Part shown: one piece after another, positions 12,073 to 42,020 of the stretch
Position numbering within the stretch: the stretch's first letter is position 1
How the letters are laid out: every line of letters begins with the position of its first letter
Assembly (NCBI GenBank): GCA_965214095.1
Contig: OZ243938.1
Coordinates: forward strand, 2,624,001-2,688,000
Direction: 5' to 3'
Length of the DNA stretch: 64,000 nucleotides
Source: Candidatus Poribacteria bacterium
Lineage (GTDB): Bacteria; Poribacteria; WGA-4E; WGA-3G
Program-made: the position numbers and the translations under genes
Notes under the pieces: model-generated
What the model was told of the DNA's origin: nothing
Databases searched by the model: none
The model's input: only the letters and a program-made list of their open reading frames with translations

Positions 12073-15000
12073 TTGATTTTTAGGTTAATGATAATGCTCA
12101 CAATTAAACACTGGAAAGGTAAATTAGGCACTGCACGTTTTCTGTGTGCTGTTTGCTTTATATTTGTATCGGTTCTGTTCGTTTTTAGTTTTGCCTCTGT
12201 TGCAGAAATCACTCAAGCGACATCAACAGACGGTATTACAGTCAATTTCAAACTCCCACAACTCCAAATTACAGAAGTTCCAACAGATACCCATGCTGAA
12301 AATACGGGTATAACCGGTGTTCACCACACAGTGCAATATGCCGAATGCGATTGGATTCACGAACCAGGACTTCCTCGGCTGCCTGCGACACGCGTTCTAC
12401 TTGCTATTCCCGCAGATGCTCAACTCAATAAAGCAGATATTTCTGTTAACGCTGGTGCCGCACAATCTCATAATGCGGTTAAGTTTCTACCGTATCAGGT
12501 TGAAATGCCAGTGAGTGTAGACCGTGTTTCTATTGATGCTGGTCATTTACAATCCGATAGTCGTGTGGGCAATCAACAGAATATAAAAAAAGGTAACCCC
12601 AATCCCATTCCAAAACTATATCCAGAAGTACTTGCTCGGATTGAGATGGATGGTTATATCCGTTCACATCGTGTCATCAGTTTAGCACTGTATCCGGTTC
12701 AGTATAATACAGCGACACGCCAACTACGTTCTTATAGTAGTCTTTCAGTTTTCATCCCAATTAAAACGCAATTAAAACCCCGCGCCTCAGGACCAACGTT
12801 CAATCCTACACGAAAAGATCCTTATGAACAAGTCTATAGACGACATATTCTAAATTATACAGACTATCTCAAGACGTTCAACGTTGATTTGAATGCAGGT
12901 GGGGTTTTTCGCAATAGAGCTGCAGGACTTGCTGCTGCTCCTGCTGCCGTAAATTCACAACAGACACGTTACAAACTCTATGTTGATGATACTGGTGTTT
13001 ATCAAGTGACTGCAGCGTCCCTTCGTAAGGATTGGGGAATTGACCTTATAGGTATTGACCCGCAAAAACTTCGTATTACCCACGGAGACAAGGAAATTCC
13101 TATCCATGTGAGTGGGGCAGTTGATGGAAGATTTGATGCTGAAGACGCAATTCTGTTTTTAGCACACAGTTCCACCGATCCTGAAAGTCCCTTTCCAAAA
13201 AATGCCTATACATTGTGGAATGTTTATTGGCTAAGCGTTGCTACAGATGAACAACAACCAGCGCGTGTGCCGCAAATTGAAGCAAGTCCAAGTGATGCAA
13301 CAGCTATTCAGGTGCCTACTTTCCGATCGCGAGTCATTTTTGAGGAGGATCACCTATCCAACAACCTTGAATTTGTATATCCAGAAGTTGTTTCGGAGGG
13401 TGATAAGCACAAATGGTTTGATGCTTTAGACTTTTGGTTCTGGGACGGTATCAAAAATGCAAGTGATATTGGCGAACTACGTCTTGAATTTCCACTCTAT
13501 GATGTCGCAAAGAGTTTTGATCCACCAAAAATAGATTTGGTTCTGCAAGGTGGAACACCCGTGAACCACCAAATCTTGGCAGCTGTCAATGGCGTTCGGA
13601 TTGATCTGGCAGAATGGGAAAGTCAAGCACAAGTCACCCTTTCCAAAAATCTTCGTGTTTGGAACAACCTAAAAGATGCAACGAAAGGGGAAAATAATGT
13701 TCTCTCTCTGGCACGCATTGACAACAACTTGGAAGAAGATACAACACGGTACCCGTATCATATCTACCTTAATCGGTTTTGGGTGGAATATACGCGACTC
13801 TTTTTAGCCGTAAATGACGAACTTCGCTTCGGAACACCCATTAAGGCTTCGCAAGAGAGTGAAAACAAAGGTGTAACACACCAATTTCGAATTGATGCTT
13901 TCTTTGATCCGAATGTGTCGGTTTTTGAGACGGATGGAAACATCCTTACGGCAAAACTTCAAGGTGTAAATGTAACGCAATATGCAACAGATGATGTGAT
14001 GCGTGCACGTCTTAGAGCATTGAATGCAGGAGATCTCAGAGGACTACCAAATCACACCTACTCAACAACTTTCCAGATACCAGATACACGAACAACCGAA
14101 TTTATAGCAGTTTCTGAGGACGCACTGCGGAAACCTGTCAACATTGAAACAGTACAACCCAGTGATTTACAAAATCCATTGAACGGTGTGGATTATCTCG
14201 TGTTAACACATGCCAGATTCCGTGAGGCAGCTGACAGGTTAGCTGAATGGCGGTCGACGGCAAGAGGTGGTGGATATCGCACTAAAGTTGTTGACATCAT
14301 GGATGTTTACAACACTTTCGGTGATGGAAAAGTACACCCAATCTGGATAAAAGATTTCCTGAGTTACGCCTATCAAAATTGGGCACCACCTGCACTCTCA
14401 TACCTTGTTATTTTAGGAGATGGCACTTACGATTTTCGCGGTATAGACAAAGAAATACATCCTGACCCGCCTGAACTGGCAGGTTATATACCTCCCCATT
14501 ACATACCAACCGATTCTTTCGGAAGAACTTCTGCAGACCATTGGTACGCCACCATCTCTGGACACGATGAATTTGTAGATTTTTATCTGGGGAGATTGAG
14601 CGTTGAAACCGAAGCGGAAGCGGATGCTGTTGTTGACAAGATTATCAATTATGAAGCACAGCCGTTAAACGGTGCTTGGAGACGTAGAATTATTTCTGTC
14701 GCAGATGACGAAGTGAGCAATTCAGGGGATGATATATTCAAAAGAAGCCTTAACGAAATCGCTAAAGACCATACGCGACTCGGATACGAAACTGTTGAGA
14801 TTTATCTTGAAGATGTGATAGATGAAGTGGAAGCAAATCCTGAACAATATCCAGGCGTGCTACCTCGCCACGTGGCAAAAGATAGAATAATTAATGCATT
14901 AGGTGAAGGTTCTGTAGTCGCACAATACGCAGGACATGGAGGAAGGATTGTCTGGGCACACGAAGCCATTTTTGATAATGCATCCATTGACAAAATTGAA

Positions 15001-18000
15001 GAGACAAAACATCTCCCATTTATGTTAGTGTTGAGTTGTTATAACGGATATTTTGATGCACCGGGTGAACCGAGTATGGCTGAAAAACTACTCCGGAAAG
15101 AAAAGGGTGGTATCATCGGAATGCTTAGTGCAACCAGACTCACCTACGGAACGGGTAATGACGACCTCAATCGGATTATCTTTGATCTACTGTTCCAAAG
15201 GAATGAACGGCAATTAGGTCCCTTGAGCTTTGACTCCAAACTTGAATACTTGCTGACAGCAGGCACGTCACAGCTGGATATAATGCTGGAATATACGCTT
15301 TTTGGTGACCCCGCATTGCGTATCGCAATGGCAGATTATGAAATACTTCCAAAAATTGAGACCAAGACAGTCAAAGCAGGTGATACTCTCAAGATCGCAT
15401 CAGGATACATCCAGAGCGTACGGTTTGACGCAGCATCACAACAAAAAGTGTTTACGCGTAATACAGGTTTTAATGGACAACTGACCGTTAAGGCAACTTT
15501 CCCAGGACAACAGTCAATCGGTATAGACAAAACTGGGGCACCGAAGGAGTTTTACTCTGGTGATGTAATCGTCACAGAGACATTCCCAGTCCAAGGTGGC
15601 AATTTTCCAGCTGTTGAAATAAACGTGCCAAGAAACATCTCACATGGAGATGCTCATGTAGAGTATTACGCTGAAAACGATACCGAAATTGCTGTCGGGG
15701 GTGATGGCTTTACTGTTGATATCCCGAAAATACTTGATATACAAACGAAGGTGATTACCACAGAATCCGGTGAGGACAAAATTGATATTTCCGCACACAT
15801 CTCTGATGATGATAAAGCAACTGTGTCTGTCGTATTAGAATGGCGGAATCCGCGCACCGTCAATAGAGATAGGGTGGATATGGTTCCTATTGAAGTGAAT
15901 TCAGATACAACATCGCAATCAGTTCCCACAGGAAGATGGTGGAAAATTCCTGAACCTTTACCTGCTCCAACTGACGGCAACGCTTTCCGTTATGATATTC
16001 AGGTTACGGATTCTGACGGATTTGTAGTCACCTCTGATTATTTCAGATTCTATCCATATACATATCCTAATCTTTCTGTGGTTTCCAAAAGATATTCTCG
16101 CATTGAACAGATCAGTTATATTTCTGTTAGCCAAAATGATGGAGTGAATGAACGCGTTTTGTCTGCTGATATTGAAGTCGTAGGTACTACGAATTCTTCT
16201 GATGATTCAGTCGCTTCTGAACGAGATCTGCTTGTGGAATTAGGACTTTCTGATATTGATATTGATGTAGTGTTTTTTAGCGGGAATCCAGATATAGACG
16301 ATAACGGTATCATTGACGTTGATGCAAATATACTTGGTCGCACTCAGATAAAACCGGATGACTGGGTAGTGCGGAATCCCCTTCTCCAACGTTCTAATGC
16401 CTACAACCCTAATCCACTCAACATCGATCCAATTGCCACAGTTTCTATCCCCGTATCCTTACGCAACGGTGTGCACGATGTGTTCGTTTATGTTGATCCA
16501 ATTTTTAGCAGCGGTGATCAACCCGGCAAAGTGCGTGAAAATAATGAACAAGATAATATTGGATATAGGCAGATTGCTGTTTCCGAAACCATTGTTGGCG
16601 CAGCACCTACACGCATAACGAGCATTGATGGTGGCTTGCGGCTAATCGCTCCCGCTGGCGCAATTCAAAATAAGTCTACCGTTATGTCGATCAGCCCGAT
16701 TGTTCCAGATATACCCGATACGAATTATGTTTATTATATCGGAGGCACTGGAGATGTCCGAAATACGAAACAAGACCTTCCTTTTCCTATTGTAAAAAGT
16801 GATTACAATGAGAACTCCGCAACAGCGATGCTATTCCCGGTTGCACTACCTACATACCTATCTATGCAAGGTTATACACTGCATTTAAACGATTCTTCCG
16901 CTGAACAATGGAGCGCATTTAAATTACAAGCACCGGTTACTGTTGAGCTTGATTATGATTATATGACACTTCAACAGGAAATCATACGTGAGCATTATGG
17001 TAGTGATACGGATGTGTTGATGGAAGAACCATCAATTGAGGAAAGGGTCAAGATGGCGGTAGAAACAAGGGTACAGACCATTGGTGTGTATCTCTGGATT
17101 GATCAGATTGCCAATTGGGTGCGACTTGATGGCTCTAAGGTTAAAAAACAAGCGAACGGCAATATATATACAACCACGCGTCCCACACATATCCGCGCGA
17201 ACAACATCGGTGATGGAACACTGGTGGATGTTGAGATTGCCCCAGAGGGGGCAGATGTCGGCACTTGGATAGTACTTTTTGAAAGTGAACGAACCTACCG
17301 ACTTCTCTATATCCCTGTTACAACAGAATTAGATACAGAAACTGCTCAACCACAATTAGAAGTAATTGGAAGTAATATCTCAATTTTACCTTTTAGTCAT
17401 CTCGGAACAAACTTTTCTAACACAAATCTTGGGTTTACACTTGACATTGACATCGGGGAAATCCCTTTCCAATATGGTGATATTTTGCGCTTTAATATAT
17501 CGCAAATTGAAGTACCGGGTGAAAATACTGATCAGTTTTATGGCGCATCTTTTCTCAACAGAAACAATGGGGATGGCACAGTTCAATATCTTGAATTGGC
17601 TCCAGAGACGACAATGCCACAAGACACTTGGTTAATCCTATTCATCTCTCCAAAGCAATTTCAGATTGAAGGTAAAAACAGTGGACTCTTGGTGAAAAAT
17701 GGTGTACCTATATATGGAACAGTTGGTACACCTTTTGAACACAGTGAATATGGATTGAAGTTGCTAATAACACAAGGTCCTGAACCTTTTGAAGTCGGTG
17801 ATCGCTTCATATTTGCTACAAGCATGGTAGGAACGATTCAAGCCGAAACTTCGTATCTCGGAACTATGACCTGTCTGCGGAGTGAAGATACGTTGCCTCC
17901 TGACATTCAATTAACCGTTGGCAATCAGAAGCACTTTATTGATGGGGCACCAGTAGACAACGCACCACTTATCCAAGCCACACTCACGGATGCACGCGGT

Positions 18001-18528
18001 ATTGACTACATCACGCGTCCAGTGAAACTTGAATTGGGACGGTTCGGTGAGTATGAGACCATCGCCGAAACAGAATACAAACTCACACACCATCCTGCGT
18101 CTTCGCAGCTTATATTGACATATAATTCACCCGAACTCGAACCTCGTGAATACCAACTCCGCCTCTCCGCAAGCGATCTTGATGGAAATATGAGCGAGAG
18201 TGAAACTGACTTTCAGGTGCATGGACAACTCCAATTAGTTGAACCCTTGAATTATCCTAATCCTTTCTCAATGGACACCACATTGACCTGTGAATTGACA
18301 CGTCCAGCGGAGTCACTTACAGTCAAAATCTATACAATCACAGGAAGACTTATCAGACAACTGGAAACAGAGGCTACCGCAGGATTCATTCAGCTAAAGT
18401 GGGATGGTAGAGATGACGATGGTAACGAAGTAGCGAATGGCGTTTATTTTGGTAAGTTTATTGTCAAAAGCCTTGACGATGATGAGGATGACCAGACACA
18501 TATTCTAAAAATGATGAAATTGAAATAG
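12073..18528 (+). CDS. PorU-like C25 (gingipain-family) cysteine peptidase/sortase with C-terminal FlgD-Ig/T9SS-type domain
   Basis: Signal peptide; C25 propeptide (EPGLPRLP); YKLYVDDTGVY, DIMDVYNTFG, LVILGDGTYD, SADHWY, YLGRL; catalytic YAGHGG and LSCYNG; TLFGDPA; C-terminal LNYPNPF...KIYTITGRLI...WDGRDDDGNEVANGVY. Start may be ATG 12088 or 12094. Confidence 0.85.
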   Translation: MIFRLMIMLTIKHWKGKLGTARFLCAVCFIFVSVLFVFSFASVAEITQATSTDGITVNFKLPQLQITEVPTDTHAENTGITGVHHTVQYAECDWIHEPGLPRLPATRVLLAIPADAQLNKADISVNAGAAQSHNAVKFLPYQVEMPVSVDRVSIDAGHLQSDSRVGNQQNIKKGNPNPIPKLYPEVLARIEMDGYIRSHRVISLALYPVQYNTATRQLRSYSSLSVFIPIKTQLKPRASGPTFNPTRKDPYEQVYRRHILNYTDYLKTFNVDLNAGGVFRNRAAGLAAAPAAVNSQQTRYKLYVDDTGVYQVTAASLRKDWGIDLIGIDPQKLRITHGDKEIPIHVSGAVDGRFDAEDAILFLAHSSTDPESPFPKNAYTLWNVYWLSVATDEQQPARVPQIEASPSDATAIQVPTFRSRVIFEEDHLSNNLEFVYPEVVSEGDKHKWFDALDFWFWDGIKNASDIGELRLEFPLYDVAKSFDPPKIDLVLQGGTPVNHQILAAVNGVRIDLAEWESQAQVTLSKNLRVWNNLKDATKGENNVLSLARIDNNLEEDTTRYPYHIYLNRFWVEYTRLFLAVNDELRFGTPIKASQESENKGVTHQFRIDAFFDPNVSVFETDGNILTAKLQGVNVTQYATDDVMRARLRALNAGDLRGLPNHTYSTTFQIPDTRTTEFIAVSEDALRKPVNIETVQPSDLQNPLNGVDYLVLTHARFREAADRLAEWRSTARGGGYRTKVVDIMDVYNTFGDGKVHPIWIKDFLSYAYQNWAPPALSYLVILGDGTYDFRGIDKEIHPDPPELAGYIPPHYIPTDSFGRTSADHWYATISGHDEFVDFYLGRLSVETEAEADAVVDKIINYEAQPLNGAWRRRIISVADDEVSNSGDDIFKRSLNEIAKDHTRLGYETVEIYLEDVIDEVEANPEQYPGVLPRHVAKDRIINALGEGSVVAQYAGHGGRIVWAHEAIFDNASIDKIEETKHLPFMLVLSCYNGYFDAPGEPSMAEKLLRKEKGGIIGMLSATRLTYGTGNDDLNRIIFDLLFQRNERQLGPLSFDSKLEYLLTAGTSQLDIMLEYTLFGDPALRIAMADYEILPKIETKTVKAGDTLKIASGYIQSVRFDAASQQKVFTRNTGFNGQLTVKATFPGQQSIGIDKTGAPKEFYSGDVIVTETFPVQGGNFPAVEINVPRNISHGDAHVEYYAENDTEIAVGGDGFTVDIPKILDIQTKVITTESGEDKIDISAHISDDDKATVSVVLEWRNPRTVNRDRVDMVPIEVNSDTTSQSVPTGRWWKIPEPLPAPTDGNAFRYDIQVTDSDGFVVTSDYFRFYPYTYPNLSVVSKRYSRIEQISYISVSQNDGVNERVLSADIEVVGTTNSSDDSVASERDLLVELGLSDIDIDVVFFSGNPDIDDNGIIDVDANILGRTQIKPDDWVVRNPLLQRSNAYNPNPLNIDPIATVSIPVSLRNGVHDVFVYVDPIFSSGDQPGKVRENNEQDNIGYRQIAVSETIVGAAPTRITSIDGGLRLIAPAGAIQNKSTVMSISPIVPDIPDTNYVYYIGGTGDVRNTKQDLPFPIVKSDYNENSATAMLFPVALPTYLSMQGYTLHLNDSSAEQWSAFKLQAPVTVELDYDYMTLQQEIIREHYGSDTDVLMEEPSIEERVKMAVETRVQTIGVYLWIDQIANWVRLDGSKVKKQANGNIYTTTRPTHIRANNIGDGTLVDVEIAPEGADVGTWIVLFESERTYRLLYIPVTTELDTETAQPQLEVIGSNISILPFSHLGTNFSNTNLGFTLDIDIGEIPFQYGDILRFNISQIEVPGENTDQFYGASFLNRNNGDGTVQYLELAPETTMPQDTWLILFISPKQFQIEGKNSGLLVKNGVPIYGTVGTPFEHSEYGLKLLITQGPEPFEVGDRFIFATSMVGTIQAETSYLGTMTCLRSEDTLPPDIQLTVGNQKHFIDGAPVDNAPLIQATLTDARGIDYITRPVKLELGRFGEYETIAETEYKLTHHPASSQLILTYNSPELEPREYQLRLSASDLDGNMSESETDFQVHGQLQLVEPLNYPNPFSMDTTLTCELTRPAESLTVKIYTITGRLIRQLETEATAGFIQLKWDGRDDDGNEVANGVYFGKFIVKSLDDDEDDQTHILKMMKLK

Positions 18529-18634: not shown

Positions 18635-19639
18635 ATGAAAAATTGTCTTTTGCTATGTATCCTTTTTCTATTCGTTCTGCTGCCTATCGCTTATGGGCAG
18701 ACTTATACTGCGGACTTTCTCACATTAGGAACAGGAGCACGTCCGTTAGGTATGGGGAACGCATTCACTGCAATTGCCGATGAAGCGAGTACTGCTTACT
18801 ATAATCCTGCTGGTATTGCACAACTGACACATCACGAATTTAACTTCATGCATTCCACGCTTGCAGACCTCGCAGCCTATGATGTCGCAAGTTATATCTA
18901 TCCGTTTTCCCGTAAAATGTCCTTCGGTATCAGTTGGCTCCGCGTCGGTGTTGACGATATTCAGGTTACTGGAATTCCTGTTACCAGTAAATCAATCGGT
19001 CCCAACAACCGTCCGTATGTGGTTAACACCTTTAGCAATACAAGTAATGCTATATTACTCAGTGGTGGGACAAATCTCGTCATTCTACCGCAAGATATTA
19101 CCACCTATCTCGGTGCTAATCTCAAAATAATCTACATTGATTCTTATCTCAATACCAATGCAGTCGGTGTTGGCAGTGATCTGGGTATACTCGCAAAAAC
19201 GAACCAAAGAAAATCCACTGCTTTTTCCTTCGGCATCGTTGCAAGTGATTTTTTCACAACCAAACTCTATTGGAACACACCACCAGAAAACGAGTGGGAA
19301 GCACCACATACAGAAACGCTTTTGCCACGGGTCAAAGTAGGTGTGGCATACCATCAGAAACTCCCAATTTTCAACAGTAAACTTACCTTAGCAGTCGATA
19401 TTGATACCCGGAACGACTATGAATTCCACACAGGGGCGGAATATGTCCTATTTGAACTGTTAGCACTACGTTGTGGGTTTGATGGTCGGAACGGCACTTC
19501 ACGTGCAATGTATTTTACTGCAGGTGCAGGTCTCCAACTCCGATTTGTCACTGGTGCAGCATTCCATGTAGACTACGCCTATCAACGACAACCGGATTTA
19601 GGTATCAACAACCGCCTCTCACTTCGTGTCAGGTTTTAG
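18635..19639 (+). CDS. PorV/PorQ-family outer-membrane beta-barrel
   Basis: Signal peptide; FLTLGTGARPLGMGNAFTAIADEASTAYYNPAG hatch motif; GAEY..LALRCG; VDYAY; terminal Phe. Confidence 0.85.
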   Translation: MKNCLLLCILFLFVLLPIAYGQTYTADFLTLGTGARPLGMGNAFTAIADEASTAYYNPAGIAQLTHHEFNFMHSTLADLAAYDVASYIYPFSRKMSFGISWLRVGVDDIQVTGIPVTSKSIGPNNRPYVVNTFSNTSNAILLSGGTNLVILPQDITTYLGANLKIIYIDSYLNTNAVGVGSDLGILAKTNQRKSTAFSFGIVASDFFTTKLYWNTPPENEWEAPHTETLLPRVKVGVAYHQKLPIFNSKLTLAVDIDTRNDYEFHTGAEYVLFELLALRCGFDGRNGTSRAMYFTAGAGLQLRFVTGAAFHVDYAYQRQPDLGINNRLSLRVRF

Positions 19640-28342: not shown

Positions 28343-28846
28343 TTACGTTATTTCAAGCCATGTCTCTAATGTTTCAATTGGATCAGTTTCCGGATTGAAA
28401 ATTAATAGTCCTTCATTACTTGCTGCTCTCAAGAGACGTTGATCAGATGCTACAAGGACGAGTGTGTCCTCTTTAGTACGAAATTCTGTATTGATTTCTA
28501 AAGCAGAACGTAGCACCATTGCATCAACGCTGTTAATGGAATGTGTTTCAACTAAATTTAACGATGTCCAAACAAGTGAATTTGGAACAGGAGCAGTATA
28601 GAAATCGGATGTGTCTGAGGTTACCTCACGAGTTAAGTTTACTACGGCATGTGTGAATTCGTGTGGGGTTATACGTTTGTCGTTTTTCTTACGGACACAG
28701 ATCCAAAAGACTTCTGCTGCCCCAAGTGTCAAACATTTTAACTGGTTTAAAGAGACATTTTCAAAAAAATAGTCAACTTTTTTACTACCAACCTCTTCGG
28801 TATACCGTTTGACAAGAGCACTTGCATCCAAGTAGAAATAATACAC
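28343..28846 (-). CDS. PIN-domain (VapC-like) toxin
   Basis: YLDASALVKRYTEEVGS, conserved Glu, SVDAMVLRSA, LVASDQRL. Confidence 0.9.
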   Translation of the reverse strand: MYYFYLDASALVKRYTEEVGSKKVDYFFENVSLNQLKCLTLGAAEVFWICVRKKNDKRITPHEFTHAVVNLTREVTSDTSDFYTAPVPNSLVWTSLNLVETHSINSVDAMVLRSALEINTEFRTKEDTLVLVASDQRLLRAASNEGLLIFNPETDPIETLETWLEIT

Positions 28847-28848
28847 AG

Positions 28849-29172
28849 TTATTTCTCACGTTCTTCAATAATAGCACGACTAAACTCGTTATCCTCGGCG
28901 CGGATACGATTTGCCATACTTTTCCGAATGTCTTCAACTGGTATAGGTTCTACATCAGCAATTCCCATTTTTTCAAGGAGTTCATTGATTATTTTGGTTG
29001 CCTCTTTCTTCTCGGACTTGTTAGATGTGTGTGGTTCATTGCTTGTTCTATCTTGACCAAGCGCGTTTGGTGCTAACTCATCAACAAGATAAGACAGTTG
29101 ATGAGAAACTTTATCTATCTTTTTTTCCAACAGATTTATCCTATTGGTTAATGTTTCAAGTGTTTCTGGCAT
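28849..29172 (-). CDS. Putative antitoxin of the PIN toxin
   Basis: AGGAG RBS; 107 aa, 2 nt upstream of the PIN gene; C-terminal SRAIIEER typical of VapB-like partners. Confidence 0.7.
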   Translation of the reverse strand: MPETLETLTNRINLLEKKIDKVSHQLSYLVDELAPNALGQDRTSNEPHTSNKSEKKEATKIINELLEKMGIADVEPIPVEDIRKSMANRIRAEDNEFSRAIIEEREK

Positions 29173-32205: not shown

Positions 32206-32985
32206 TTAATAACGGGCTTTGAGGCTGCCCCAGATTGTTGGGAGTTTGTTAGCGGGTTCAACTGCGGTTACTGATGTAGTGAGGAGCTTAGCATCTCCCA
32301 AGCAGGAGTGGTCGCAGCCTAATCCATCGCCACCATCACCCATAACAATCGTAAGTTCTGATGCCCCTTCAGGGATGTCAAATTCAACTTTCAAAGGTTC
32401 AACATTTTCACCATCTGCTGTGCCTGTCAAAGTTTCGGTTGATTCTACTTCTGTTCCATCAATTGAAAAGACAAAATGACTACTACCACCGTGTCCACAA
32501 TCCCCTGGATCCTTTTCATCGGACATGCCAGCATACCCTTCAAATCTGACGTAATCATCACCAGTTAAATCGTAGACAAAAGTTCCGACAGAATGTGCCC
32601 CAAAACCACGTTCAAAATAGGTGCCACCAATGACGATGTGATTACGGGTTGTTGCACCTTCCCCGATAGTGGCGTTATCAAAGTTCAAGGGACCTCCCCA
32701 ACCTGTCCATTCAGCAACAGGGTTCTTGGGAATAAGACCGCAAGCGTTTGCTTTCGGTTGACTTCCACCAACTACTGCCAAGTAAACAACACCGTCCCGG
32801 GTATCTTCTTCAACAACTTCATCATAGTCGTTCTGTGTAGCAACCTCTTCTGAACTAACTTGTGAAATAGGTTTTGCTCCGTCACCATCTAAGTTTGTGC
32901 AGTCACTTTTGTCAGCATGAATGCCGAAAACGAGACATACGATTAGTAAAATACTTATTGCAATTAAACTATTATATTTCAACAT
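32206..32985 (-). CDS. Secreted NPCBM/NEW2-domain protein with C-terminal TxWG tail (paralogue 2)
   Basis: GGAGG RBS; signal peptide; IGGTYFERGFGAHS, YDL, FEGYAGMSD, DGGDGLGCDH; ends AVEPANKLPTIWGSLKARY. Confidence 0.85.
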   Translation of the reverse strand: MLKYNSLIAISILLIVCLVFGIHADKSDCTNLDGDGAKPISQVSSEEVATQNDYDEVVEEDTRDGVVYLAVVGGSQPKANACGLIPKNPVAEWTGWGGPLNFDNATIGEGATTRNHIVIGGTYFERGFGAHSVGTFVYDLTGDDYVRFEGYAGMSDEKDPGDCGHGGSSHFVFSIDGTEVESTETLTGTADGENVEPLKVEFDIPEGASELTIVMGDGGDGLGCDHSCLGDAKLLTTSVTAVEPANKLPTIWGSLKARY

Positions 32986-33044
32986 AATGTACCTCCGCAG
33001 GTTTGGTAAAACACAGTTTAATATGTACAGTCAATTTATTCATT

Positions 33045-33097
33045 ATATATTGTGAGTAATCAAGGAATAGTGTTATACTTGATTACTCACAATATAT
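33045..33097. terminator. Perfect 20-bp stem hairpin between the NPCBM paralogues
   Basis: atatattgtgagtaatcaag / cttgattactcacaatatat with a 13-nt loop, about 25 nt past the stop of 33123..33932. Confidence 0.75.
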
Positions 33098-33122
33098 TAA
33101 CAATATTTTCCCAAAAGTAAGT

Positions 33123-33932
33123 TTAATAACGTGCTTTCAGATGTCCCCAGATTGTTGGGAGTTTGTTAGCGGGTTCAACCGCAAGTGCTTGCGCGGTTAG
33201 GAGTTTGGCATCGCCAATAGCTGAATGATCGCAACCATTTCCATCTCCACCATCCCCCATAACTATTGTGAGTTCTTTTGCATTAGAGGGAATGTCAAAT
33301 TCAACCTTAACAGCATCAACATTTTCTCCACCATCTGTGCCTTTGAGCGTTTCAGATTTGAATTCTTGTTTCCCATCAACAGAAAATATGAAATCACCGC
33401 TTCCGCCATGACCACAATCACCAGGGTCTTTTTCATCGGACATGCCGACATACGCTTCAAATTTGAGGTATTTGTCACCAGTTAAGTCATAAACTAATGT
33501 ACCTACAGCATGTGCCCCGATACCACGTTCAAAGTAAGTGCCACCGATGACGATATGGTTTCGGGTTGCAGCACCTTCACCGATGGTGGCATTGTCAAAG
33601 TTAAGTGGACCACCCCAACCTGTCCATTGACCTGCATCATTCATGGGAATAAGTCCACAGGCATTCGGTTGGGGTTGGCTGCCACCAATCACAGCAAGAT
33701 ACACGACACCTTTACGATCATCTTCTTCCACGACTTCATCATAATCGTTCTGTGTGCCAGCAACTTCTTCACCAACTTCCTGAATTGGTTTGGCACCATC
33801 ACCATCAATGTTTGTGCAGTCTTCTTTGGCAGCATTCACGGTGAAAGCAATGCCTATTAATAGTATCATCATAATGAAAGCAAAACACTTAATGTCTCCA
33901 TTAGATGTTCTTAACATATTAACTATTTTCAT
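33123..33932 (-). CDS. Secreted NPCBM/NEW2-domain protein with C-terminal TxWG tail (paralogue 1)
   Basis: AGGAGG RBS; signal peptide; same motifs as 32206..32985; ends AVEPANKLPTIWGHLKARY. Confidence 0.85.
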   Translation of the reverse strand: MKIVNMLRTSNGDIKCFAFIMMILLIGIAFTVNAAKEDCTNIDGDGAKPIQEVGEEVAGTQNDYDEVVEEDDRKGVVYLAVIGGSQPQPNACGLIPMNDAGQWTGWGGPLNFDNATIGEGAATRNHIVIGGTYFERGIGAHAVGTLVYDLTGDKYLKFEAYVGMSDEKDPGDCGHGGSGDFIFSVDGKQEFKSETLKGTDGGENVDAVKVEFDIPSNAKELTIVMGDGGDGNGCDHSAIGDAKLLTAQALAVEPANKLPTIWGHLKARY

Positions 33933-33971
33933 AGATTAACCTCCTATAAAACTACAATTGTGTCAAACAAT

Positions 33972-34400
33972 TTAACGGGGTGAATATAGTTCTTCTTGGG
34001 AAAACAGTATAGCTAATTCATTCATAGCATTCTCAGCACAATCGGATGCATGTACGAGATTATAGGTGATGTCAGTTGAGAAATCACCGCGAATACTTCC
34101 CGGCGCGGATTCTAACGGATCGGTTGCACCGTTAATGAGACGTGTTATTTTAATCGCATTCTTACCCTCAATAGCGATGGCAACAATCGGTTTGTCGGTC
34201 ATAAATTCAATAAGCTTGTCATAAAATGGTTGTCCTTTATGAATGGCGTATAATTCCTCTGCAGTAACACGGTCCATCTGCAGCAATTTCAAACCAACTA
34301 TCTTTAGACCTTTTCCTTCATAACGGGAAATAATCTCCCCGATTAGTCCGCGTTGAACACCATCTGGTTTCACCAGAATCAGTGTTTTTTCTATTTCCAT
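33972..34400 (-). CDS. ndk: Nucleoside-diphosphate kinase
   Basis: TLILVKPDGVQRGLIGEII, PGSIRGDF, NLVHASD (catalytic His). Confidence 0.97.
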   Translation of the reverse strand: MEIEKTLILVKPDGVQRGLIGEIISRYEGKGLKIVGLKLLQMDRVTAEELYAIHKGQPFYDKLIEFMTDKPIVAIAIEGKNAIKITRLINGATDPLESAPGSIRGDFSTDITYNLVHASDCAENAMNELAILFSQEELYSPR

Positions 34401-34584
34401 ATCAACTCCGTTTTACTGTTAAAAATCAAATATTTAATACAGATTTCCTATTTCAAATCTGATAATTTAGTATATTGATTTTGTAATTTTTTGTCAACTT
34501 TTAAATCATCCTAACCATTTTATACTTGTCTTACCGTTGACGTTGTGCTAAATTATATTAAACTCGTTGATACAGGAAAACCGC

Positions 34585-34971
34585 ATGGAAAAGCAGCTGC
34601 CACCTATAACAGATCCATCTCAAGTTTTAGCAGAGATATTGACTACAGAAAAACCTTGGGGACGTTTTATTCAGTATGTTCTTAACCAACCGGTGACTGT
34701 AAAGATTTTAGAAATCCATGCGGGGGAACAGGTAAGTTATCAGTATCATCACCATCGGAGTGAACTATGGATCCCACTTGACGAAGGTGCTTGCGTTCGG
34801 CTTGAAGATGATGTGATACATCCAAAACCGATGGAACCGGTCTTTATTCCGCAAGGTGCGAAACATCAACTTATTGGCGAATCTCAAGATTATCGGATAC
34901 TTGAGATCGCTTTCGGAAACTTTGACGAGGACGACATTGTCAGACTTGACGATAAATATGGAAGGGCATAA
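34585..34971 (+). CDS. Cupin protein, phosphomannose isomerase type II C-terminal-like
   Basis: KPWG, SYQYHHHRSELW, ILEIAFG.FDEDDIVRLDDKYGR. Confidence 0.88.
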   Translation: MEKQLPPITDPSQVLAEILTTEKPWGRFIQYVLNQPVTVKILEIHAGEQVSYQYHHHRSELWIPLDEGACVRLEDDVIHPKPMEPVFIPQGAKHQLIGESQDYRILEIAFGNFDEDDIVRLDDKYGRA

Positions 34972-35047
34972 AAGAAAGATGTGATAATTGGATTAAACTT
35001 AGATTTCAATGGCCTCGGAAATGTTAACCTGAATTAAGGAGACAATC

Positions 35048-35830
35048 ATGTATTGCCTAAAATATATACGGATTTGGATATGTGTTGCTCTATTGTTGCA
35101 TAGTTCTGTTATGTTAGGATTTGGACAAGGGGAGAAAGCCGGAACGCTTGTAGGTCATTGGACATTTGAGAAAGGTGTTGAATTGGAAGATTTGACAGGT
35201 AATTTTGTTGATGTTACGCTTATGGGGGCTGAAATAGCGGATGGGAAATTGAATGTTGATCCCGGCAAATGGGCAATCGCGAGTGGTTATGATGGACCGG
35301 ATATTGAAGAAAAAACGCTGGTGTCGTGGGTGATTATGGACGATCTTGATGTTCAGGAAGGTTCGATATTAACCATTGATCGCCTTTCCGATCCTACGTT
35401 TGATGCAATCGTTTTTGGGGAACGCCAACATCATCGTTGGATGGCAGGGAGTGGGTGGTTTCATCGCACTATGGATCCTGATCCCGGTTTTGAGGAAAAG
35501 AAAACTGGTGAGTTGATTATGATGGCGATCTCGTATGAAAATGATAACGACATTGCAAGAGTGAGAATATACCGCAATGGAGATAAAATCGGTGATTACA
35601 CACATGGACAATTCGTGACTTTTGCTAATAACGATGCAGAAGCAATTTGGGGTAAACGTCACGGTGGTGTAGGTGGAGGCCCGGGAGACCTTGATGTACA
35701 CATTGAAGATTCGCGTATCTATGCTGCTGTTCTCAACCAAGCAGAAATAAGAAAGTTAATTCCGGATACGCTGACTGTGGAAGCACAAGGTAAACTCGCT
35801 ACTACATGGGCAAGAATAAAGATAAGATAG
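35048..35830 (+). CDS. Secreted LamG/concanavalin-like protein with C-terminal TTW tail
   Basis: AAGGAG RBS; signal peptide; LVGHWTFE...IYRNG...IEDSRIYAAVLNQAEI; ends TVEAQGKLATTWARIKIR. Confidence 0.82.
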   Translation: MYCLKYIRIWICVALLLHSSVMLGFGQGEKAGTLVGHWTFEKGVELEDLTGNFVDVTLMGAEIADGKLNVDPGKWAIASGYDGPDIEEKTLVSWVIMDDLDVQEGSILTIDRLSDPTFDAIVFGERQHHRWMAGSGWFHRTMDPDPGFEEKKTGELIMMAISYENDNDIARVRIYRNGDKIGDYTHGQFVTFANNDAEAIWGKRHGGVGGGPGDLDVHIEDSRIYAAVLNQAEIRKLIPDTLTVEAQGKLATTWARIKIR

Positions 35831-41213: not shown

Positions 41214-42020
41214 GTGGATGATATCTGGATACCTATCTTCATTTTCATCATAGGTTTAGCAATTGGCAGTTTCCTCAATGTTTGTATTTACCGCATTCCT
41301 CGCTCAGATATGTCAATCTATTCCCCACGTAGATCTTTCTGTCCAGAATGCCATCAATCCATCAAGTTTTACGACAATATACCGCTATTGAGTTATCTGT
41401 TGTTACGCGGAAAATGTCGGCATTGCAAAGCAAAAATATCTGTCCAATATCCGACTGTTGAGTTCGTTACAGCAGCACTCTATCTCGTGATATATTACCA
41501 ATTCGGCATGTCACTTTATTTATTGCTGCATGCGATCTTTTTTGTGTCTGTGCTGATACCGATTGCCTTTATTGACGCACATCACCTTATCATTCCGAAT
41601 GTCCTAAGCCTCATGGGACTCGGACTTGGGTTGGGAATAGTGTGCGTGATTGCATATCAGAATAAAGATTTAGATTATCTGAAGATGCAACTCATCGGAT
41701 TTGTTGCAGGTGGATTGGTGATATGGTTAATTGGGTTTATCGGCAGTGCAATAATGCGGAAAGAAGCGATGGGTATGGGTGATGTCAAGTTGATGGCGAT
41801 TATCGGATTGTATCTCGGTGCGTTCCCTGAGTTGCCTATGGTGATAGCATTGTCTGCCTTCAGTGGTGCAATCATCGGGACACTGCTGATAGCCACTGGC
41901 AAGAAAGATAGGAAGAGTCCCATACCTTATGGTCCATTTATTGCTATTGCTGCTGTGGTCGTGCTGTTATGGGGAGACCCACTTTGGGAGAAATATCTGC
42001 AGCTGGCGGGGTGGAATTGA
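41214..42020 (+). CDS. pilD: Prepilin peptidase (A24)
   Basis: GSFLNVCIYRIP, CPEC and CRHC, AFIDA, GMGDVKL, IPYGPFI. Confidence 0.95.
   Translation: MDDIWIPIFIFIIGLAIGSFLNVCIYRIPRSDMSIYSPRRSFCPECHQSIKFYDNIPLLSYLLLRGKCRHCKAKISVQYPTVEFVTAALYLVIYYQFGMSLYLLLHAIFFVSVLIPIAFIDAHHLIIPNVLSLMGLGLGLGIVCVIAYQNKDLDYLKMQLIGFVAGGLVIWLIGFIGSAIMRKEAMGMGDVKLMAIIGLYLGAFPELPMVIALSAFSGAIIGTLLIATGKKDRKSPIPYGPFIAIAAVVVLLWGDPLWEKYLQLAGWN

Follow-up and report, generated by a model that had tools for sequence, protein, structure and literature searches.

Why do exported proteins that are unrelated in their folded parts end in the same short peptide? The question arises from a stretch of 64,000 nucleotides of a Candidatus Poribacteria genome (contig OZ243938.1, positions 2,624,001 to 2,688,000; hereafter the window), in which two NPCBM-type proteins and one LamG protein share a C-terminal tail. 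Poribacteria are dominant, uncultured symbionts of sponges, and their many exported proteins of eukaryote-like or lectin-like character are thought to be involved in host contact. The tail recurs throughout this genome and throughout the phylum, and the same peptide precedes type IX secretion system (T9SS) sorting domains in other proteins, so that it is probably an undescribed sorting or anchoring label. Judged by its sequence and placement, it is a real, phylum-wide and apparently undescribed C-terminal tag, which by evolution and position belongs to the cargo architecture of the T9SS type.

A short tail on unrelated exported proteins

The first-pass annotation of the window took the tail for an export or anchoring signal of the outer membrane, a view that would lose ground if the motif were equally common at internal positions or folded as part of the domain preceding it. 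Its description of three tails, on two NPCBM proteins and an unrelated LamG protein, is accurate in both reading frames and ends (Table 1). The NPCBM paralogs, which are 73% identical, terminate in AVEPANKLPTIWG[S/H]LKARY, and the LamG protein terminates in TVEAQGKLATTWARIKIR. Pfam recognizes NPCBM in the 269-aa paralog with an E-value of 1.3e-25. Laminin_G_3 scores 27.1 bits on the LamG protein, against a cut-off of 27.6, and database homologs of this protein carry PF13385. Outside the tail there is no significant similarity between the NPCBM and LamG proteins of the window (best BLASTP E 0.99), and all three start with a hydrophobic, signal-peptide-like N-terminus. In an AlphaFold2 (AF2) model of the LamG protein, based on a 40-row alignment, the block means of the predicted local distance difference test (pLDDT) are mostly above 90 for residues 30-240, compared to values below 50 for the tail residues 245-260. 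The tail is thus predicted to be disordered and to lie outside the LamG fold. Two longer LamG homologs, P0154 and P0156, were considered as fusions of LamG with a T9SS C-terminal domain (CTD) and were ruled out, as they consist of tandem or fused LamG copies.

Table 1 Tail-bearing genes and candidate T9SS-type genes in the window (positions are those of the window).
Feature	Position	Strand	Length	Remarks
PorU-like C25 protein, candidate reader	12073..18528	+	2151 aa	Propeptide_C25, Peptidase_C25, C-terminal FlgD_ig/T9SS-type CTD
PorV-like outer-membrane barrel	18635..19639	+	334 aa	Pfam UPF0164; directly downstream of the PorU-like gene
NPCBM-type exported protein	32206..32985	-	259 aa	tail AVEPANKLPTIWGSLKARY at 32209-32265; stop codon 32206-32208
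NPCBM domain protein (paralog)	33123..33932	-	269 aa	tail AVEPANKLPTIWGHLKARY at 33126-33182
LamG (Laminin_G_3-like) exported protein	35048..35830	+	260 aa	tail TVEAQGKLATTWARIKIR at 35774-35827

The genome comprises 5.25 Mb in four contigs, with 22,939 stop-to-stop open reading frames (ORFs) of at least 60 aa that together hold 3.17 million residues. The regular expression K[LIVM].[TS].W[GAS].[LIVM]K matches these ORFs 84 times, compared to 0.19 matches expected from residue frequencies. This count is far above chance, and all 84 matches stand 1-10 residues ahead of a stop codon. A profile built from them, of the kind proposed in the first-pass annotation, returns 139 rows. In 134 ORFs the tail lies no more than 12 residues from the stop, a scale far beyond the three proteins first noted; the remaining five rows comprise a copy that immediately precedes a T9SS CTD, another in a 78-aa ORF, in which Arg replaces the last Lys and about 45-46 residues follow the motif, and three rows of noise. 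Genome-wide, neither profile nor regular expression finds the motif at an internal position other than directly ahead of a T9SS CTD, and together with the predicted disorder of the LamG tail this means that neither pattern named above as telling against a signal was observed. The tail is carried by 132 of 4,079 crudely called genes (about 3%), spread across the whole chromosome.

The consensus reads V-[ED]-P-x-x-K-L-T-T-T-W-[GA]-x-[LI]-K, followed by 1-10 residues, with an overall length of 16-20 aa. The Trp and the last Lys are invariant (134/134 each), while the first Lys is kept in 124 and the Val at position -10 in 114 of the 134 tails. When the last motif position is left free in the search, Lys still occupies it in all 84 C-terminal instances. 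The residues that follow are rich in R, S, K and Q and most often number three. They are never absent: no tail ends at the Lys itself, either in this genome (0/134) or among the public loci described below (0/119). At +1, directly after the Lys, 114 of 134 tails have S, R, K, Q, T, A, G or N. One LamG family keeps its tail columns constant, with variation in the residues after the Lys. This pattern of conservation fits a recognition or cleavage site.

With signal peptide and tail removed, the 134 proteins cluster by BLAST into 26 unrelated core families, the largest of which is LamG with 60 members. Pfam matches on 40 representatives include Laminin_G_3, NPCBM, LTD with LRR, Cadherin or Big, PD40, WD40, Ldl_recept_b, CBM9_1, CBM_4_9, F5_F8_type_C, DUF4960 and DUF1349; 13 of the 40 have no Pfam match. 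We used a crude hydropathy measure for signal peptides on tail genes of at least 150 aa (n=126), and by this measure 107 of the 126 have a signal-peptide-like N-terminus, compared to 1117 of 3288 other genes. Choosing the best among the first eight start codons gives 119 of 134 instead. A lipobox is present in 1 of 134 tail proteins. A hydrophobic 15-mer (mean Kyte-Doolittle value of at least 1.6) occurs in the last 40 residues of 2 of 134 only, and the tails themselves have no membrane helix. The co-occurrence of the tail with Sec signals, noted for the three window proteins, extends to most of the set, and the lack of a transmembrane helix in the tail to all of it. The median length of tail proteins is 258 aa, compared to 910 aa for CTD proteins. 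In sum, exported proteins with unrelated cores share the tail as a modular tag, and neither NCBIfam (10 tail proteins, E ≤1) nor Pfam (40 tail proteins, E ≤0.01) has a model that matches the last 25 residues.

A further conserved element adjoins the tail in long LTD/LRR/cadherin proteins (loci L004-L010 and L014). Directly before the tail, which here opens with ISA in place of VEP, these proteins have a module of ~100 aa of the form LPVTLSxFxAE...KWTTESExDNAGF...YYYxIEDVS, which has no Pfam match.

The link of the motif to Poribacteria, made in the first-pass annotation, was confirmed by three kinds of search. Every one of the 61 genomes sampled from the phylum, which cover 14 genera and 8 families, gives matches to the tail profile (from 19 to at least 134 each), and none of them is tail-less. 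The exact DNA pattern KLTTTWGx[ILMF]K occurs at no fewer than 120 loci in GTDB species genomes, with a stop 1-8 residues past the Lys in 119 of 120 loci among the matches listed. Among these, 80 rows have titles: 71 are Poribacteria, six are 'uncultured bacterium', two lie on one contig titled Pseudomonadota and one is Synechococcus. The Synechococcus match was rejected as chance because the ORF runs on and the upstream VEP is missing. Finally, a 45-aa profile searched against a set of 5.8 billion proteins gave 2011 proteins at E ≤10 among 8000 candidates scored, and the named proteins among the 120 matches listed are all Candidatus Poribacteria. As far as sampled, the tag thus appears to be limited to one phylum. 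The two ORFs under the Pseudomonadota title (L058 and L059; JAPPIL010000222.1, a 21.5-kb contig of a metagenome-assembled genome) are genuine tail-ending ORFs, and the contig may be a misbinned Poribacterial one.

In RNA libraries, contigs from four runs, 90-95% alike, span the three window genes with shares of 0.07-0.16, which indicate neither transcription nor habitat. In addition, many short RNA-library contigs from several studies match only the 37 tail-coding bases at 35775-35811. Such matches are no proof of transcription; they do indicate that the tail is conserved in its nucleotide sequence, too, between different genes of relatives.

We found no paper describing the tag in the literature on C-terminal sorting or type IX secretion in Poribacteria. 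The strings KLTTTW, TTWGKLK and TTWGSIK have no occurrences among the papers listed, and the listed matches to shorter strings are papers on DNA motifs and primers. Passages of the single-cell study of Kamke et al. 2014 (PMC3909097) report TIGR04183 domains on eukaryote-like proteins of Poribacteria, state that the Por secretion genes were not found and leave the pathway open. The short tail is absent from these passages, which do not extend to Supplementary Tables S8 and S9. No other coherent set of candidate surface or secreted proteins in Poribacteria is as large as the one marked out by this tag, and its sequence offers a simple means of recognizing Poribacterial DNA in assemblies from sponges.

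The same peptide ahead of T9SS C-terminal domains

The genome contains 77 CTDs of the TIGR04183 type. None of these matches falls on the three tail genes of the window, and Pfam finds neither Por_Secre_tail nor FlgD_ig on the 40 tail proteins searched. In 4 of 70 CTD proteins, however, a tail-like peptide stands directly before LLQN[YF]PNPFNPETW. These composites read ...PFxVEPxGLxxTT[LF]Gx[VI]K-RTA-L[LFY]QNFPNPF..., with the same spacing as in the tail, and the general pattern is VEPxx.LxTT[WLF]Gx[IVL]K followed by RTA-LLQN[FY]PNPF. The invariant Lys of the composites lies 7 residues before N[YF]PNPF, the motif B of the CTD. The architecture extends across the phylum: the DNA pattern [WLF]Gx[ILV]K-x5-QN[YF]PNPF detects composites in 37 of 41 genomes, whereas a reversed control detects none. 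Genomes from the family of the window have 1-11 composites each, and those from two sister families 5-33. A search with this Lys position left free gives, as read by eye, Lys in 79 and Arg in five of 84 composites from five sister genomes; Lys was found in all 29 loci checked by script.

For a composite C-terminus modeled with AF2 from an alignment of 44 rows, pLDDT values are below 50 in residues 1-60, which include the motif, and above 90 in the CTD. The prediction thus puts the motif in a disordered coil that joins the mature domain to the folded CTD. Profile alignment with hhalign also places the tail on the stretch before the CTD, although the match is weak (probability 21%, E 0.001) and the motif is present in only 4 of 20 template rows. 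We had also considered the tail as a shrunken copy of the last hairpin of the CTD, motif E, which it resembles by eye (G-x-hydrophobic-T-x-T); hhalign chose the pre-CTD stretch instead. From these data we infer that the tail is the free-standing form of a conserved pre-CTD linker peptide. That the same peptide forms this linker across the phylum is what ties the tail to a T9SS-like system.

Another idea, that composites of the sister families have been converted to tail-only orthologs in the present genome, found no support. Among the listed matches of 13 query composites there is no tail-only protein; the WD40 composites matched this genome's own composite, and 6 of the 13 queries (L184-L189) had no match. 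Many of the 70 CTD proteins share a different pre-CTD stretch, FQRGIxxLEQLLxxLTPKETALLPNYPNPF, which resembles a separate pre-CTD module.

Known sorting signals and candidate machinery

One close known counterpart of the tail is the T9SS type A CTD (TIGR04183, or PF18962 Por_Secre_tail; FlgD_ig-like). Both stand at the C-terminus of unrelated, Sec-exported surface or secreted proteins, both are found dozens to hundreds of times per genome together with SprA-, PorU- and PorV-like genes, and in the composites the two are physically joined. The differences concern fold and sequence. The type A CTD is a folded β-sandwich of ~45-100 residues with motifs B (YPNP), D (GxY) and E, whereas the tail has 16-20 aa, is predicted to be disordered and has neither YPNP nor GxY in its logo. 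The tail thus corresponds to the linker ahead of the CTD and not to the CTD itself.

The position of this linker is of interest for processing. In passages of a study of Prevotella intermedia (PMC11969387), PorU cleavage sites are located in the coil between mature domain and CTD, and the cleavage-site motif, PT/GI, is placed 6-11 residues before motif B in short CTDs. The same passages give PorU sites a preference for small residues at +1, with R, K, H, D and N also tolerated, and describe the shortest known CTDs, of 43-55 aa, as folded and three-stranded. PorU is described elsewhere as both a signal peptidase and a sortase-type transpeptidase (PMC11285876). The composite motif occupies the same position, ending 7 residues before N[YF]PNPF in a predicted disordered linker, and the residues that follow the Lys of the tail resemble the reported +1 preferences. 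On the other hand, the tail is far longer and more conserved than any described cleavage-site motif and also occurs without a CTD, its cleavage is only proposed, and most CTD proteins of this genome use another pre-CTD sequence.

Short conserved C-terminal motifs that are restricted to certain lineages and found on many unrelated exported proteins are also a property of the LPXTG, PEP-CTERM and GlyGly-CTERM signals. These signals, which are read by sortase, exosortase and rhombosortase, respectively, are tripartite, with a motif, a membrane-spanning helix and a basic tail. In the Poribacterial tail there is no helix, and only 1-10 polar or basic residues follow the motif. An analogy of a different kind comes from peptidases of clan CD. 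The Lys-gingipain Kgp, legumain-type ligases and the glycosylphosphatidylinositol (GPI) transamidase cut after one defined residue, and transpeptidation in this clan can proceed with very short leaving groups. The tail has an invariant basic residue and a short, variable extension that is always present, and the candidate C25 family belongs to the same clan; the comparison is pure analogy.

The pair of PorU- and PorV-like genes that the first-pass annotation had proposed as a plausible reader is indeed present in the window. The PorU-like protein, which with 2151 aa is of double length, has Porphyromonas gingivalis PorU as its best solved match (E 1e-31), with the GHGG motif, which contains the catalytic His, and the catalytic Cys aligned, and the adjoining gene encodes a UPF0164 barrel. 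The genome has three C25 genes, of 2153, 2161 and 1752 aa, the two outside the window being located at C1:2779829-2786311 and in the region C1:2992996-3098221. Their catalytic regions form three deep clades in this genome, with the window type ~32% identical to the others, and across 21 PorU-like catalytic regions neither the catalytic His nor the catalytic Cys varies. Of 41 genomes of the phylum, 40 have at least two C25 genes, and the phylum keeps two to four giant paralogs. The genome also encodes ~12 PorV-like barrels, including that of the window; two of the barrel genes, at C1:2852209 and C1:3852647, directly follow ORFs of 3324 and 3067 aa that have no CTD motif of the NPFNP type. About 48 kb upstream of the window, an ORF of 2196 aa (C1:2569438-2576028) resembles SprA, with partial matches to TIGR04189 at 67.9 bits, below the curated cut-off. 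Taken together, the features expected of T9SS cargo and of a T9SS genome are found here in the form of Sec-like N-termini on 107 of 126 tail proteins by the crude measure, an SprA-like ORF that scores below cut-off, three PorU-like C25 proteins and PorV-like barrels. Models for GldM, GldL and GldN (TIGR03517, TIGR03513 and TIGR03523) have no match in the genome, but they are equally silent in control genomes and are built on Bacteroidota, and GldK was not part of this search.

The first-pass view of the tail as an export or anchoring signal is thus supported in part. The tail is a modular tag of exported proteins with a link to the T9SS, but the neighborhood analysis shows no linkage of tail genes to PorU or PorV genes. 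The neighborhoods of the three PorU-like genes and of the SprA-like gene also have nothing in common. We co-folded the catalytic region of the window PorU-like protein (524 aa, 21 rows) with the last 45 aa of tail proteins (41 rows) and obtained a score of 0.01 against a mark of 0.32, which is uninformative either way.

A favored reading and its rivals

The reading we favor, tentatively and at somewhat less than an even chance, is that the tail is a linear, T9SS-linked C-terminal tag found throughout Poribacteria, which would be read by PorU-type attachment machinery and possibly cut after the invariant Lys. Following export by Sec, the flexible tail would be recognized as a linear motif, with the core T-T-W-G-x-[IL]-K, by the C25 component of this machinery. 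Cleavage of the chain behind the invariant Lys would then set free the 1-10 variable residues or, in composites, the CTD, and the protein would either be released or be coupled to a surface acceptor. In some tails just one residue follows the Lys, and in no tail is the Lys the end; if tails are substrates, the only scissile bond common to every tail would therefore be at or before Lys|x. An invariant basic P1 residue would suit family C25, which includes the Lys- and Arg-specific gingipains, and among other enzymes of clan CD there are transpeptidases whose leaving groups are very short. The three PorU clades fit a division of labor between signal classes without proving one. If cleavage after the Lys occurs, the tail would be a sortase-like signal that needs neither a membrane anchor nor a folded domain and could serve as a very small display tag. 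The peptide, the three candidate enzymes and the mass-spectrometric signatures expected of the mature end provide a testable handle.

Several observations weigh against this reading. The motif is no general requirement for CTD processing, since 66 of 70 CTD proteins lack it and have P-x-x-T-A-L-L in its place (59 of the 70 have P at -8, and 48 have T at -5). Four of 41 genomes, which all belong to the three most distant families, gave no match to the composite pattern although they have 61-102 tails. Tail-only proteins lack the CTD motifs B, D and E, which in Bacteroidota bind PorV and are needed for secretion, according to passages of PMC11969387. If the rule of a small residue at +1 applied here, the composites could be cut at T|A, two residues past the Lys, and many tail-only proteins would then be mimics of the product rather than substrates. 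The genomic context points to no partner either: tail genes are scattered and share no neighbor family, only a loose single-linkage cluster of 445 secreted multi-domain proteins being enriched, and 3 of 12 PorV-like genes lie within 5 kb of a tail gene, compared to 2.4 expected. The S1 pocket of the PorU-like enzymes is unreadable from the alignments with RgpB and PorU, which are too gapped, and no result places a PorU- or PorV-like protein in contact with the tail. A more ambitious form of the favored reading is unlikely in our view. It would make the tail a self-sufficient sortase signal of a diderm bacterium, with the five residues W-[GA]-x-[LI]-K as its core. A PorU-type C25 transpeptidase with specificity for Lys/Arg would cut this core after the Lys and couple Sec-exported, lectin-like proteins covalently to a surface glycolipid, in the absence of a membrane helix or folded CTD, and each of the three PorU clades would serve another class of C-terminal signal.

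The main rival, though we doubt it, starts from the product. Here the tail would be an uncut product mimic or docking peptide, equal to the end that composite cargo retains after CTD removal, and would hold the protein non-covalently on a surface receptor such as a PorV-like barrel, lipopolysaccharide or a giant adhesin. It accounts well for the point at which tail-only proteins stop, 1-10 (mode 3) residues past the Lys and almost exactly where the CTD of composites begins with T-A-L-L, and for the conservation of VEP...TTW upstream of the Lys, which is as strong as that of the Lys itself. The ~12 PorV-like barrels would offer receptors, and the cargo consists mostly of small lectin-like modules that would gain from display. 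However, a docking peptide need not be C-terminal, yet the motif is never internal, and the Lys is never the last residue (0/134 and 0/119). The neighborhood analysis yielded no receptor, and the route of these proteins to the surface is left unexplained. We consider it improbable that the tail instead answers to an unrelated, Poribacteria-specific machine, be it a protease, ligase or transporter, in which case the pre-CTD copy would be either a second use, independent of the first, or a sign of common ancestry in which the reader is not shared. Such a machine would agree with the restriction of the tag to one phylum as far as sampled, whereas T9SS-type CTDs span many phyla. It would also agree with the lack of a Pfam or NCBIfam model for the tail and with the failure to detect GldL/M/N-type motor genes, to which the controls are silent too. 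But there is no candidate gene, as no neighbor family is enriched beyond the loose giant cluster of secreted proteins, and the way in which the tail matches the pre-CTD linker of hundreds of proteins, position for position, is hard to explain without a functional link.

It is still less probable that the tail is a minimal export signal that on its own targets Sec-exported proteins to the SprA-like translocon, directly or by way of a PorV-like shuttle, and so replaces the folded CTD. The tail aligns to the pre-CTD linker and not to the terminal strands of the CTD with motifs D and E, and it is predicted to be disordered, whereas the shortest T9SS signals described in the passages of PMC11969387 are, at 43-55 aa, folded and three-stranded. 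In its favor, the same passages cite the finding that for one P. gingivalis CTD the last 22 residues alone are strictly needed. Replacement would also be consistent with the occurrence of WD40 and LRR/LTD families with either ending, and with the many tails and few composites in genomes of the window's own family as against more composites in the sister families. Least of all, and already disfavored, comes a tail with no role in sorting, either a leftover of CTD loss or a generic stabilizing end; we regard this as very unlikely. Tail-only proteins do resemble composites truncated at the CTD boundary, but a leftover should not keep Trp and Lys invariant in 134 paralogs of 26 families, persist in 61 of 61 genomes of 14 genera, stop within 8 residues in 119 of 120 public loci among the matches listed, or hold its columns constant in a LamG family in which the residues after the Lys vary. 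The sole copy with Arg for Lys is the one in the 78-aa ORF, where about 45-46 further residues follow.

Two minor observations concern other genes of the window. A gene for a prepilin peptidase (Peptidase_A24 with A24_N_bact) lies at 41214-42020 on the plus strand, and a pathway of the type II secretion or type IV pilus type is therefore a possible alternative route through the outer membrane. At 28343-29172 on the minus strand, two adjacent small ORFs of 107 and 167 aa resemble, by eye, an antitoxin and PIN-type toxin pair.

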